Virus record (IMG/VR): IMGVR_UViG_2531839104_000013
From: a virus
Lineage: Duplodnaviria > Heunggongvirae > Uroviricota > Caudoviricetes
Strand: one strand, 5' to 3'
Length of the DNA: 4,986 nt
A model generated the notes under the pieces. The model saw only the letters and a program-made list of their open reading frames with translations. It did no database searches and was not told the origin of the DNA. A program made the translations under genes and the position numbers. Positions 665 through 3,554 of the stretch are shown here, piece after piece (positions within the stretch are counted from its first letter, which is position 1; every line of letters starts with the position of its first letter).

Positions 665-827
665 GATTCCTCCTTGCTGCCAGTCGCAACCATTTTTTAT
701 CAACCAGGCTGGCGGTATATCCGAGCAGTGTTGGTATTTCGGATGGCTTCAGCTCAGGTTTACGCTTACGACGATTTGGTACTTTGTAGATGTGTCCGTT
801 CATGACACGAATAAGCGGTGTAGCCAT
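657..827 (-). CDS. ninE: NinE-family protein, 56 aa
   Basis: Not in the ORF track (too short). Hand translation gives [56 protein letters not shown]. The ATG overlaps the ybcN stop (TAATG), is preceded by AGGAGG, and the 3' end overlaps the ybcO start by 8 nt. Confidence 0.85.
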   Translation of the reverse strand: MATPLIRVMNGHIYKVPNRRKRKPELKPSEIPTLLGYTASLVDKKWLRLAARRNHG

Positions 828-1282
828 TACGCCTCCTGCTTGTCACGCAGCAGCTGGAACTCGCAGCTCTGTGGAATAGTCAGGTGGCAGCCAATATTCA
901 TCGCCCAGGCTTCAACCTTACACAGGAAGACATACATCTCTCCGGTACCAAGATCGGAGGTATGGCGTAACGACTGGATAGTAGTGATTTCGCCGGTTAC
1001 GACATCAACCAGGTCCTTGGTTTCATAACCGAGGTATGTGTGTTTGAGAGCATCTTTTACCCATGCTGAAGTAGCGAACGATTTCCCCCTGCTGATGAGG
1101 TATTCACTGATTTCGCTGTACCACATGTGGCTGAGTGCATTCTGGGAAAGACTGCGTCTCTCGCGCCACGGTTTAAGCACCATGCGAAAGCATTTGCCGT
1201 CTTCCAGATAAGTCTGGATCTGCTGACCGACAGCGGTGAAGTTACCGCGATGTAATTTGATGCCATCTTGTGGGAGGTTCAC
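827..1282 (-). CDS. ybcN: NinB/Orf-family recombination protein (YbcN-like), 151 aa
   Basis: Track [24 protein letters not shown]...; the RSLSQN motif resembles lambda NinB. Start is GTG at 1282..1280, with GGAGG 6 nt upstream. Confidence 0.85.
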
Positions 1283-1377
1283 GCTTCACCTCCGCAGAGA
1301 TCAAACGCTGGATGCAAGACATCGCAGGTGCATTTCTGCATCTGTGACAAGGTAAGGAGTTCAGATTGTGGTCGCAT
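1279..1377 (-). CDS. Hypothetical 32-aa small ORF translationally coupled to ybcN
   Basis: ATG at 1377..1375 preceded by AAGGGGA; translation [32 protein letters not shown]; stop TGA overlaps the ybcN GTG start (GTGA). The Shine-Dalgarno and ATG lie inside the hairpin at 1373-1396. No homology recognised. Confidence 0.25.
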
Positions 1378-1396
1378 TTAAGTCCCCTTAAATGCG
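1373..1396. repeat. Hairpin/palindrome: 10-bp stem (CGCATTTAAG / CTTAAATGCG), 4-nt loop
   Basis: Perfect dyad read directly from the sequence. On the minus-strand RNA it would sequester the Shine-Dalgarno and AUG of the 32-codon ORF. Confidence 0.5.
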
Positions 1397-1401
1397 CAGA
1401 A

Positions 1402-1430
1402 GTCACCGGAGTTGTTCAAGCTCCGGTGAC
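1402..1430. terminator. GC-rich hairpin, 10-bp perfect stem (GTCACCGGAG / CTCCGGTGAC), 9-nt loop; possible terminator (tR2-like position upstream of the ninB homolog)
   Basis: Perfect inverted repeat read from the sequence. It is followed by ATTATTAT on the plus strand and TTCTGCGCATTT on the minus strand, so there is no canonical U-run and terminator function is uncertain. Confidence 0.3.
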
Positions 1431-1487
1431 ATTATTATGGAAGGTTGATACTAAAAAATCAAAAATTGAATATCATTGGCGATAGTC

Positions 1488-1510
1488 TAGCTTGTGATAT
1501 CCACAAGCTA
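1488..1510. repeat. Perfect 23-bp palindrome TAGCTTGTG-ATATC-CACAAGCTA (candidate operator or recombination site)
   Basis: 9-bp arms are exact reverse complements with a 5-bp centre; located in the non-coding spacer between ybcK and ybcN. Confidence 0.45.
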
Positions 1511-1783
1511 CTTCAATGAAGCGACGAGTAACATTTTGTGTCATCCATGTTTTTTCAGTTAAGTGCCACACCCAGTTCAAAATTTGCTGATGTGTTGAAC
1601 ATGTACTAAGCGGGATGTTGTATTCATAAGCAACATTGATTCCGCAAAATCGGTGTCGTGTCATGACCGATTCACGTTGACCTGCGCCCTGTTGAGTGCC
1701 TGGGGATATTCTTGCTCGATAGTTAATATCATAGTAGTTACTTTACTTTCATACCATAGCACGGTTGAAAAAGTGATTATTAC

Positions 1784-3310
1784 TCAAAAATAAACCTCAC
1801 CATCAACCATATATTTGAGAGCACTTATCGCCTGCTGGGCGGATATTACTTTCATTAAAGGATAGTGTTTAAAAACAATGCCATTCATAAAATAGATATC
1901 ACAGGTTTTATTATCCGTATTAATTATGATTTTTTCGAATATTTTATAGGCAAGTGTACGGCATAACTCTCGTCCATTTTTACTGGTTAAGTCAATAGCA
2001 TAAAAATCACTGAATGAATTTACACCTTTACTCTTCAAAGTTTTCAATGATACCAAAGCTCTTCGTAATTCCTTATCTAATAGTCTTATTTTCTCTGCTA
2101 TAGCGGTAACTTCAGGCGCGACAGACAATGCAACGATTAAATTATTAATTTTCATCTGAAGCTCAATAATTTTTAACTCTAAAGTTTCATTAGCATCTTT
2201 CTTGTTTTCAACTGGTTGAATTTTGCTACAATTAAAAAGCAATTCATTAATGATATTATAATCAACCAAATCTCTCTTTATTGATGGCCTGTCACATCGA
2301 TGTAATCTTCTCATCGGACAAACATAATAGCCATGCAAACTTCCAGATACCGCATGAACAATCATGGTATTACCACAAGCCTCACACTTCATAACTGTTC
2401 GAAGTAGATTTATTAGCATAGGATTCTTGCTACTATTGCTAATACCAAAAGGTGCCAACCGAATTTCCTGTACAGCGTAAAACAAATCATCTGATATGAC
2501 TCTGGGATAATAGCCAGCGATTTCACTTATCCCTTTCCCTCTTGCACGATATGAAGGTACGCATATACCTATCAGAGCTTTATTCGCTAATAATTTTTCA
2601 ATTACAGAAGGCCCCCATGCACTTTCTTTTCCTGAGAAATTCTTTACAGCATGATCATTTAAATACTTGGCTATTGCATTCAATGAGCGCCTTTCCATCC
2701 TGAGTTTAAAAATTAGCTCAATAGTTTTCACCCTGTCGGGGTCTGGAACAAAAGCCGTTCTTTTGTCATCTAAGGAGAGCCATCTCGGACAAGACGCCGT
2801 CATAATCGTACCTGATTCCAGTGCATCCTGCCGTTTTTTCTTCCATGATAATTTAACCCGACTTGACTTTATCTCGCTTTCTTCATTTGCCCTTTGTGCT
2901 ATAAGTATGGCTTTTATTAATGAATATGGCTCATTCAAAGAGTCAATATTATAGACTGTATTGTCGCAAAGAGTTATAACATCAATACCGTGATTCAAAA
3001 TCAATTTCAGACGTTCAATCGCTTCACCGACTTTTTCTCTTGAAAGTCTGTCCAGACTTTCAACTAACAATGTAGTTCCTGGCAATATATAACCATGCTC
3101 TATAGCATCTAAAAATTCCGAAAAAGCTCCTGATTGTGCATGCTTTCCTTTGAATGCACTTAATCCTAAATCTTCATATGTTATGGTATCAAGATAATAA
3201 TCACTATTTACCTTTAACCATTCAGCAATAAGTCTTCTCTGTCGGTTTAATGAGTCGCCAGACATCTGACCTGGTGATGAAAATCGCATATATGCTATGG
3301 CTTTTTTCAT
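1784..3310 (-). CDS. ybcK: Large serine recombinase (YbcK-like), 508 aa
   Basis: N-terminal resolvase catalytic motif YMRFSSPGQ (putative nucleophile Ser), TTLLVESLDRLSR motif, Cys-rich zinc-ribbon region (CEACGN...YYVCPMRRLHRC) and a coiled-coil-like region (ELKIIELQMKINNLIVALS...). AGGTG lies 5 nt upstream of the ATG at 3310. The gene is conspicuously AT-rich. Confidence 0.9.
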   Translation of the reverse strand: MKKAIAYMRFSSPGQMSGDSLNRQRRLIAEWLKVNSDYYLDTITYEDLGLSAFKGKHAQSGAFSEFLDAIEHGYILPGTTLLVESLDRLSREKVGEAIERLKLILNHGIDVITLCDNTVYNIDSLNEPYSLIKAILIAQRANEESEIKSSRVKLSWKKKRQDALESGTIMTASCPRWLSLDDKRTAFVPDPDRVKTIELIFKLRMERRSLNAIAKYLNDHAVKNFSGKESAWGPSVIEKLLANKALIGICVPSYRARGKGISEIAGYYPRVISDDLFYAVQEIRLAPFGISNSSKNPMLINLLRTVMKCEACGNTMIVHAVSGSLHGYYVCPMRRLHRCDRPSIKRDLVDYNIINELLFNCSKIQPVENKKDANETLELKIIELQMKINNLIVALSVAPEVTAIAEKIRLLDKELRRALVSLKTLKSKGVNSFSDFYAIDLTSKNGRELCRTLAYKIFEKIIINTDNKTCDIYFMNGIVFKHYPLMKVISAQQAISALKYMVDGEVYF

Positions 3311-3554
3311 GGTGACACCTGCTAACTTATGCTTTTATAAACCTTAGTGGTGAGATATAATTTTTGTTTAATTTTTATTTAAAAAGACAATTACGATCAC
3401 ACTATCTTGAATATACAACAATAATCGTATTGCAATTTGCTTACGCAATAATCTTGAAGGCACAAAAGAATACACAAAAACTAAAAACATTAACAAAAGC
3501 GGCCCATGTAAAGATATGAACCGCCATATTGCAGTCTTTTAAAAGAAATTATTT
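3311..3554 (-). promoter_or_regulatory. AT-rich intergenic region upstream of ybcK containing phased A-tracts and ATTGCAAT/GCAATA motifs; probable ybcK promoter region
   Basis: A-tracts at about 3464, 3476, 3483 and 3494 at roughly helical spacing; palindrome ATTGCAAT at 3429-3436. No confident -35/-10 pair could be assigned by eye. Confidence 0.3.

Follow-up and report, generated by a model that had tools for sequence, protein, structure and literature searches.

The stretch analyzed here, 4,986 nucleotides (nt) of DNA from a virus of the Caudoviricetes (IMG/VR record IMGVR_UViG_2531839104_000013; the whole stretch is hereafter called the window), carries on its minus strand, directly upstream of the Orf/NinB-family gene ybcN, a structured messenger RNA (mRNA) leader that includes a 32-codon open reading frame (ORF) homologous to ylcH of Escherichia coli K-12. 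The leader is considered, on the strength of sequence comparison, probably to be a promoter-proximal, doubly locked, and translationally coupled element that would keep the expression of Orf/YbcN low and dependent on ylcH. Its anatomy, its conservation, covariation at the RNA level, the maintenance of the ORF, and the overlap of the ORF stop codon with the next start codon are direct observations. The original prediction, made from the letters of the window, had read the segment as a structured leader in which folding could gate translation of the small ORF and, through coupling, that of ybcN; every element of this reading that can be checked computationally holds, and the reading is supported.

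Hairpins A and B at the 5′ End of the Leader

A repeat search recovered the two adjacent perfect hairpins that had been noticed upstream of ybcN, both with 10-bp, 100% complementary arms (Table 1), following one another on the minus strand as hairpin A (1430-1402), UUCUG, and hairpin B (1396-1373). In 300 first-order Markov resamples, perfect inverted repeats with arms of 10 bp or longer and loops of 3-10 nt averaged 0.04 per window, and 0.3% of the resamples contained two or more; three are present in the window, of which two lie at the leader. The third, at 3040-3063 within ybcK (TTGAAAGTCT-GTCC-AGACTTTCAA), is equally improbable by chance. RNA folding of the 163-nt minus-strand leader, which had been named as a check, gave −59.2 kcal/mol with z = −4.6, and none of 200 shuffles was as good.

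The claim that hairpin B encloses the Shine-Dalgarno sequence (SD) and the start codon of the small ORF proved correct: the SD, AAGGGGA, lies at 1389-1383, with its last four bases forming the GGGA loop, and the 3′ arm contains the AUG (1377-1375). This arrangement is conserved by compensatory changes, with at least nine stem variants (e.g., CGCAUUUAAG/CUUAAAUGCG, GCGCUAAACG/CGUUUAUGCGC, and GCGCCAAGUG/CACAUGGCGC) all having the GGGA loop and all having the start codon in the 3′ arm. The stem is a perfect 10-11 bp in most variants and has an internal mismatch or bulge in three of the nine; the folding free energy over all variants ranges from −13.2 to −17.3 kcal/mol. In the distant Pseudescherichia and Izhakiella members the loop is AGAACA, with the AUG still paired. 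The 24-nt hairpin B of the window was calculated to have a free energy of −13.8 kcal/mol at 30 °C, −12.0 at 37 °C, and −10.7 at 42 °C; an RNA thermometer was considered and rejected, the hairpin remaining stable to at least 50-60 °C.

Hairpin A was found with 45 different stems of 5-14 contiguous pairs around a conserved loop, YYUGRRCAN, and with double changes at nine of the ten pairs. Among the 364 stem pairs, 50 are G-U on the transcribed strand, and this abundance argues for a sense RNA hairpin rather than a DNA palindrome or an antisense RNA. Hairpin A is followed by UUCUGCGC and hairpin B by ACCACAAU; neither tail is a U-tract, and that of hairpin A is not conserved in Klebsiella-type members.

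TABLE 1. Coordinates of the leader, its putative promoter, and the gene that it precedes, numbered along the window.
Feature	Position	Strand	Description and basis
-35 element, TTGATT	1462-1457	-	Promoter scan; within the dyad TTGAT-N8-ATCAA (1462-1445), where similarity to other phages and prophages begins
-10 element, CATAAT	1439-1434	-	17 bp after the -35; predicted start near 1427, at the base of hairpin A
Hairpin A	1402-1430	-	Arms 1402-1411/1421-1430, 10 nt, 100% complementary; 9-nt loop CUUGAACAA; 5′ end of the predicted transcript
Hairpin B	1373-1396	-	Arms 1373-1382/1387-1396, 10 nt, 100% complementary; 4-nt GGGA loop
32-codon ORF, ylcH/orf33 homolog	1279-1377	-	ATG start; UGA 1281-1279 overlaps ybcN GUG 1282-1280 as GTGA (4 nt)
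Unstructured linker	1349-1372	-	C-rich, G-poor; ORF codons 2-10
Hairpin C	1321-1348	-	Inside the ORF; GUC.CAG.UGCA-GAAA-UGCA.CUG.GAU
Codons D-V-L-H-P-A	1306-1323	-	D-F-L-H-S-A in most members; single-stranded; variation mainly synonymous
Hairpin D	1281-1308	-	Sequesters the ybcN SD GGAGG (1293-1289) and reaches the GUG start; folding and covariation
ybcN	827-1282	-	Orf/NinB-family, PRK09741; 151 aa; GTG start; gene served by the leader

The Small ORF

The suggestion that the ORF might correspond to the annotated ylcH was confirmed by comparison with K-12 YlcH (b4588), with which it shares 19 of 22 C-terminal residues (BLASTP, E = 4e-14). The window ORF, K-12 ylcH, and orf33 of phage 82 occupy the identical position in the locus, directly 5′ of and overlapping ybcN/orf151, and are true homologs; the window has an N-terminal/hairpin-B variant beginning MRPQSELL, with the stem CGCAUUUAAG, whereas K-12 and phage 82 have MRTYNPNS, with GCGCUAAACG. 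The ORF is called as a coding sequence by PGAP, with the product given as a hypothetical protein; no family in Pfam or NCBIfam matched the product, and the 32-residue peptide is polar and without a hydrophobic span.

Of 114 distinct sequences, 113 keep the ORF open over 31-34 codons, and the remaining one has GUG in the place of the start codon. The overlap of its stop codon with the ybcN GTG, as described for the window, recurs as an overlap with the next start in 110 of the 114 variants (ATGA in 91 and GTGA in 19); in HK639-type copies the ORF ends 7 nt further on. Two decayed copies were also encountered, one in E. coli HS-01 (L005:477-545), in which the ylcH ATG has been lost and which PGAP annotates as a partial pseudogene, and one in Citrobacter werkmanii (L145:5144-5290), in which the stop/start arrangement has been lost.

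Variation along the ORF is uneven. In the N-terminal third it is mostly non-synonymous; in the codons of hairpin C amino acids change with pairing kept; and the C-terminal third follows from the type of SD hairpin downstream. The D-F-L-H-S-A codons vary mainly synonymously, with five Leu codons, TTT/TTC for Phe, and TCT/TCA/TCC/TCG for Ser. That the ORF is kept open, together with this pattern—synonymous in D-F-L-H-S-A and free elsewhere—suggests that ribosomes read the frame. The bulk of the YlcH peptide sequence appears to be unimportant, with one short motif possibly excepted. A type I toxin-antitoxin system or antisense RNA was rejected, the peptide being polar, the plus-strand hairpins containing A-C mismatches, and a search for an antisense promoter/terminator pair yielding none.

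Hairpins C and D and the Downstream Gene

Hairpin B is separated from hairpin C by a linker found in 35 distinct versions, with mean contents of 37% C and 5% G and freely varying encoded amino acids. In a second scan, anchored outside hairpin C, 30 of 31 distinct variants kept at least nine of its ten pairs. The tetraloops include GAAA, GAGA, GAAG, GCAA, UAAC, GUCC, and ACAC, and the residues encoded there vary too. Two competing folds were set aside. A long helix, AUGCAGAAA/UUUUCUGCAU, is predicted by RNAfold instead of hairpin C in many E. coli-type members, but it is impossible in Klebsiella-type members, and hairpin C covaries. An antisequestor, in which the 5′ arm of hairpin B would pair with a copy of AAAUGC/AUGGCG in hairpin C, was judged too weak at about 6 bp against a 10-bp stem, and minimum free energy folds keep hairpin B.

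In Enterobacter sp. BIGb0383 (NZ_RJKQ01000002.1, L153:5505-5560), a hairpin-C stretch, TTGTCACAGATGCAGAAATGCACCTGCGATTT, was observed as a spacer between CGGTTTATCCCCGCTG(G/A)CGCGGGGAACAC repeats. These repeats look like a type I-E CRISPR array, and this host would therefore carry immunity aimed at the conserved leader.

Hairpin D pairs the downstream SD in all three sequence types, namely ybcN with GUG, phi80-type ybcN, and ninB. Its mean free energy over 53 variants is −14.7 kcal/mol, with double changes at six of the ten pairs, and the two hairpins that hold ribosome-binding sites (RBSs), B and D, both lie at roughly −13 to −17 kcal/mol. The leader has the anatomy of leader-ORF coupling, with the downstream RBS sequestered within the upstream ORF and a 4-nt stop/start overlap.

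The gene that follows is always of the Orf family: it encodes NinB (PF05772) in 54 contexts and a YbcN-like product (PRK09741) in 47. These two clades share only ~16% identity. Products of the Orf family bind single-stranded nucleic acid (PMC4118853).

Covariation and Distribution

All 70 distinct 5′ leaders fold into hairpins A and B. In a MAFFT alignment of 79 leaders made from sequence alone, 91.3% of the cells pair, compared with 33-36% when the partners are slid, and the covariation score is 0.342, compared with 0.150 for shuffled alignments and matched by none of 500 shuffles. In an alignment of 89 distinct sequences fitted to a covariance model, 93.5% of the cells pair, and both sides have changed at 27 of the 40 pairs. 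The stems as well as the ORF are conserved in related prophages, and the absence of such conservation, which the original prediction had named as a refuting outcome, is decisively contradicted.

An exact-pattern scan for the most conserved stretch located the leader in at least 120 IMG/VR contigs among the matches listed, and in 31 GTDB species representatives of 11 genera, namely Enterobacter, Citrobacter, Escherichia, Raoultella, Leclercia, Lelliottia, Siccibacter, Trabulsiella, Huaxiibacter, Pseudescherichia, and Izhakiella; all are Enterobacteriaceae except for one Izhakiella. A 601-nt query comprising the leader, the 5′ end of ybcN, and the 3′ end of ybcK matched 1857 of 5426 E. coli genomes (34%), some of them through ybcK alone. 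The covariance model built here found exactly one copy per locus. In Rfam 15, a cmscan search of window positions 1100-1800 at E values up to 10 returned only a chance match to engA (14.9 bits vs. a gathering threshold of 46), and four other members gave no match on the leader.

Other RNA families lie near the leader in some loci. In Izhakiella australiensis (L140:486-684), above-threshold Rfam matches to c4-a1b1, isrK, and C4 antisense RNA, which form a P1/P7-type immunity RNA cluster, are located ~1 kb upstream of the leader (1650-1809), and an isrJ match lies ~2 kb from the leader in locus L141.

Setting and Prior Annotation

The 601 nt of the window that were compared are 100% identical to those of a lambdoid prophage beside icd in E. 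coli O157:H7. The genes, all on the minus strand, are ordered P, ren, emrE, the recombinase gene ybcK, the 32-codon ORF, ybcN, ninE, ybcO, and rusA, and the leader lies between ybcK and ybcN.

The locus has been annotated in part. In the phage 82 record X92588 (Mahdi et al. 1996), the leader of which is 84.7% identical to that of the window at the nucleotide level, putative -35 and -10 elements are marked at positions equivalent to those of the window, and the equivalent of hairpin A, a 29-nt repeat, is labeled as a "possible regulator-binding site." In the phi80 record the equivalent of hairpin B is annotated as "IR4," and the small ORF is not called. The ORF, the repeats, and the putative promoter are therefore already known as annotations, with no function given in those records. 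A literature search with ylcH, the ybcN promoter, the ninB leader, and the sequences themselves, which did not take in the phi80 genome paper or Mahdi et al. (1996), returned no description of the leader. The conservation at the RNA level, hairpins C and D, the coupling design, and the four-hairpin architecture appear to be undescribed before. The element is a homolog of an annotated locus and is best classed among the structured mRNA leaders coupled to an upstream ORF.

The Promoter-Like Site and the Borders of the Module

The original prediction had missed the promoter-like site. A match of at least 8 of 12 bases to the -35 and -10 elements, with a 16-18-bp spacer, was found in 102 of 103 distinct upstream contexts, compared with 9 of 103 shuffled ones. 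The -10 element lies 13-17 nt ahead of the hairpin-A loop motif in 101 of the 103 contexts, and TTGATT serves as the -35 element in 64 of them. The site is kept by three unrelated upstream sequence types, one of them with TGnTATAAT. The dyad in which the -35 element is embedded has constant ends and a variable center; its half-sites look FNR-like, but their spacing does not suit FNR, which was set aside.

Similarity to other prophages and phages, as detected with BLAST, covers the 5′ end of ybcN and the leader and ends at ~1464, just upstream of the -35 element, and the genes upstream of the leader are mutually unrelated across contexts. Because homology is bounded in this way and the neighbors are unrelated, the leader is a discrete module with mosaic joints at the -35 element and the downstream start codon.

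The original prediction had also placed the two hairpins where lambda has tR2. The map position is indeed the same, the leader and tR2 both sitting between the replication/ren genes and an Orf-family gene; however, the hairpins are not the tR2 equivalent. Lambda carries a single canonical intrinsic terminator here, AGGCCUGCUGGUAAUCGCAGGCCUUUUUAUUU, and lacks the small ORF, whereas the hairpins of the window lack a U-tract, and a search of the 1-kb ren-ninB stretch of lambda with the covariance model gave no match. An intrinsic terminator was rejected, the scan calling nothing on the minus strand at 1279-1465, hairpins A and B being followed by no U-tract, and lambda tR2 being unrelated. Among the relatives, a canonical terminator, GGCCUCUUCGGAGGCC-UUUCUCUU, adjoins the -35 element in 30 of 110 contexts, and it is this terminator that is the real positional analog of tR2.

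Comparison With Known Systems

Coupling by which translation of a leader ORF opens a sequestered RBS is known from mok/hok of plasmid R1, rpmI-rplT, and the coat and replicase genes of phage MS2. The leader would resemble these systems in that the downstream SD is locked inside the upstream ORF, the stop and start codons overlap, and initiation upstream would be limited by structure. It differs from them in sharing no homology, in having a product that is no toxin and no evident antisense RNA, and in locking by two local hairpins instead of a long-range fold-back.

The put RNAs of phages HK022 and HK639 are promoter-proximal antiterminators with two stem-loops; like the leader, they occur in lambdoid phages and measure ~60-70 nt (PMC9378689). 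However, put stems are bulged and form a triplex, and the elements are placed after pL or pR, whereas the second stem of the leader is an RBS. In HK639 itself, the annotated putL-like RNA and the leader are at different places, and the former folds differently; the leader model R1, run with filters off on that annotated RNA, gave no match, so that a put-like element finds no support.

Proposed Mechanism

Promoter activity, the start site, translation of ylcH, gating of translation by folding, coupling, and a role for Rho are what we infer from this anatomy. A sigma-70-type promoter, TTGATT-17-CATAAT, at the left mosaic joint of the module would produce a transcript starting at the base of hairpin A. 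In this transcript hairpin B would lock the SD and AUG of ylcH, and hairpin D, within or just beyond which ylcH ends, would lock the SD of the Orf-family gene. Initiation at ylcH would follow a rare opening of hairpin B, or its opening by some factor; the ribosome on ylcH would then unwind hairpins C and D, terminate, and reinitiate at the overlapping start. Orf/YbcN would be made only after initiation at ylcH, which would tie its low level to one rate-limiting event. When untranslated, the leader would expose its C-rich stretch to Rho, and transcription reading through toward Q from this promoter could thereby be limited in a lysogen.

The K-12 prophage DLP12 bears on this mechanism, its block having been inferred to be poorly expressed, with adequate rusA expression needing a promoter supplied by an insertion sequence (IS; PMC4118853). 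Such poor expression fits a tight lock. A K-12 RNA-sequencing table in which ylcH RNA is listed by itself (PMC8910356) adds weak support.

Several points weigh against the mechanism. The poor expression of DLP12 is equally compatible with a dead promoter. The predicted start would drop the outer pairs of hairpin A, yet these pairs are conserved, so that the true 5′ end may lie elsewhere, or the transcript that matters may instead be readthrough from pR. With hairpin B at −10.7 kcal/mol even at 42 °C, initiation at ylcH is hard to account for, and the C-rich linker, at only ~23 nt, is short for a rut site. In addition, the sequences were fetched by exact patterns and are phylogenetically related, and the counts given above are not those of independent events, a bias partly offset by the second scan anchored elsewhere and by the slid controls.

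Alternative Explanations

That hairpin B, and perhaps hairpin A, is a translational operator—bound by a phage or host protein, such as the Orf-family product or CsrA acting on GGA loops, so as to repress or activate translation of ylcH and orf—is considered unlikely. The replicase operator of MS2 likewise has its SD in a hairpin loop and its AUG in the 3′ arm, and in the leader the GGGA and YYUGRRCAN loops are conserved while the stems covary. The constant linkage to a gene of the Orf family, with its single-stranded nucleic acid-binding products (PMC4118853), also fits a bound protein. However, no binding partner was identified, the GGGA loop is also simply the SD, and the Pseudescherichia and Izhakiella members have AGAACA in its place.

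There is likewise a small chance that the leader represents a new class of cis-regulatory RNA switch in the nin/orf-Q block of lambdoid phages. A trans-acting partner reading the YYUGRRCAN loop of hairpin A or the GGGA loop of hairpin B, or else the nascent D-F-L-H-S-A peptide acting on the ribosome, would then determine either the opening of hairpin B or the passage of transcription beyond hairpin C and its U-rich tail.

A DNA operator, in which hairpin A and the dyad TTGAT-N8-ATCAA bind a dimeric repressor of the promoter and the RNA hairpin is incidental, is quite improbable. It would agree with the label in the phage 82 record and with the poor expression of DLP12; the palindrome, at about -3 to +26 relative to the predicted start, sits where operators classically lie, and the dyad over the -35 element has constant ends and a free center. 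In hairpin A, however, it is the arms that vary and the loop that is constant, the reverse of the pattern of an operator, the G-U stem pairs would be A-C mismatches in a DNA palindrome, and the element is common to phages with unrelated immunity regions. The argument from G-U pairs and from arms and loop does not exclude a factor that binds the -35 dyad.

Action at the level of transcription, either as put-like antitermination by two stem-loops or as a pyrBI-like attenuator in which hairpin C and a U-rich tract are suppressed by a closely following ribosome, is similarly improbable. The promoter-proximal pair of stem-loops is superficially putL-like (PMC9378689), but the stems are perfect, lacking the bulges and triplex of put, the covariance model has no match on the annotated putL-like RNA of HK639, and the element also occurs in phages with N-type systems (phage 82 and phi80). 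In most members hairpin C is directly followed by UUUUCUGCAUUC, within the ORF; in the window this U-run is broken (UGUCUUGC). Hairpin C itself is interrupted by two internal mismatches and weak at its base, and the scan detected nothing terminator-like on the minus strand at this locus. The RNA-sequencing table for K-12 lists ylcH alone as changed, and not ybcN (PMC8910356), which would agree with action at this level.

Finally, a functional YlcH small protein and/or a recombination linker at a mosaic joint, with the hairpins secondary, is very improbable: the nearly universal open ORF, the mainly synonymous variation of the DFLHS codons, and the homology running from the -35 element to the downstream start between unrelated genes and Orf clades only ~16% identical (PMC4118853) speak for it, but the N-terminal third and the hairpin-C codons change freely, the C-terminal third is set by the downstream SD type, the product matches no Pfam or NCBIfam family, and recombination alone cannot yield compensatory changes at 27 of 40 pairs.

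Neighboring Features

Some further observations concern the genes around the leader. Between ybcK and the promoter-like site, at 1465-1783, the window has a gap of ~320 nt with no annotated gene, where K-12 has ybcL and ybcM; it holds a 9-bp hairpin (1488-1510) and a 63-aa ORF (1473-1664) with a faint match to DDE_1 (E = 0.012). The ybcK gene is an intact 508-aa ORF in the window (1784-3310) and is annotated as a frameshifted pseudogene in strain TR01 (L003:6585-8107), which is identical to the window over the 601 nt compared. Farther upstream, ~30 nt past the emrE stop codon, a terminator-like hairpin with a TTTTGTT tail at 3498-3525 on the minus strand is the sole canonical-looking terminator on the gene strand from ren to ybcN.

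Within the rusA coding region, at 259-274 on the plus strand, CGGGCGACGTTATCAC is one base off a K-12 HusR (YnfL) box, with none expected by chance. Two HusR (YnfL) boxes have been reported upstream of rusA in K-12 (PMC12844172). HusR was rejected as a regulator of the leader, its site sitting in ybcO-rusA, away from the leader.

Implications

The leader offers a clean candidate RNA family backed by covariation, with four hairpins in ~160 nt and outside Rfam 15, as well as a tractable system in which to examine how structure limits initiation and how termination is coupled to reinitiation. If it were a switch of the kind outlined above, it would provide a route to the expression of recombination genes, and possibly of Q, that is independent of N, put, and Q. 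If the doubly locked, coupled leader is the correct reading, a very common module of enterobacterial prophages would carry its own promoter and a leader that meters the recombination mediator Orf/NinB and, by polarity, the downstream nin genes (rusA/rap and ultimately Q). This would help to explain the silence of DLP12 rusA without an IS-supplied promoter, and also why, at a notorious mosaic joint, this short stretch is conserved more strongly than any other sequence.

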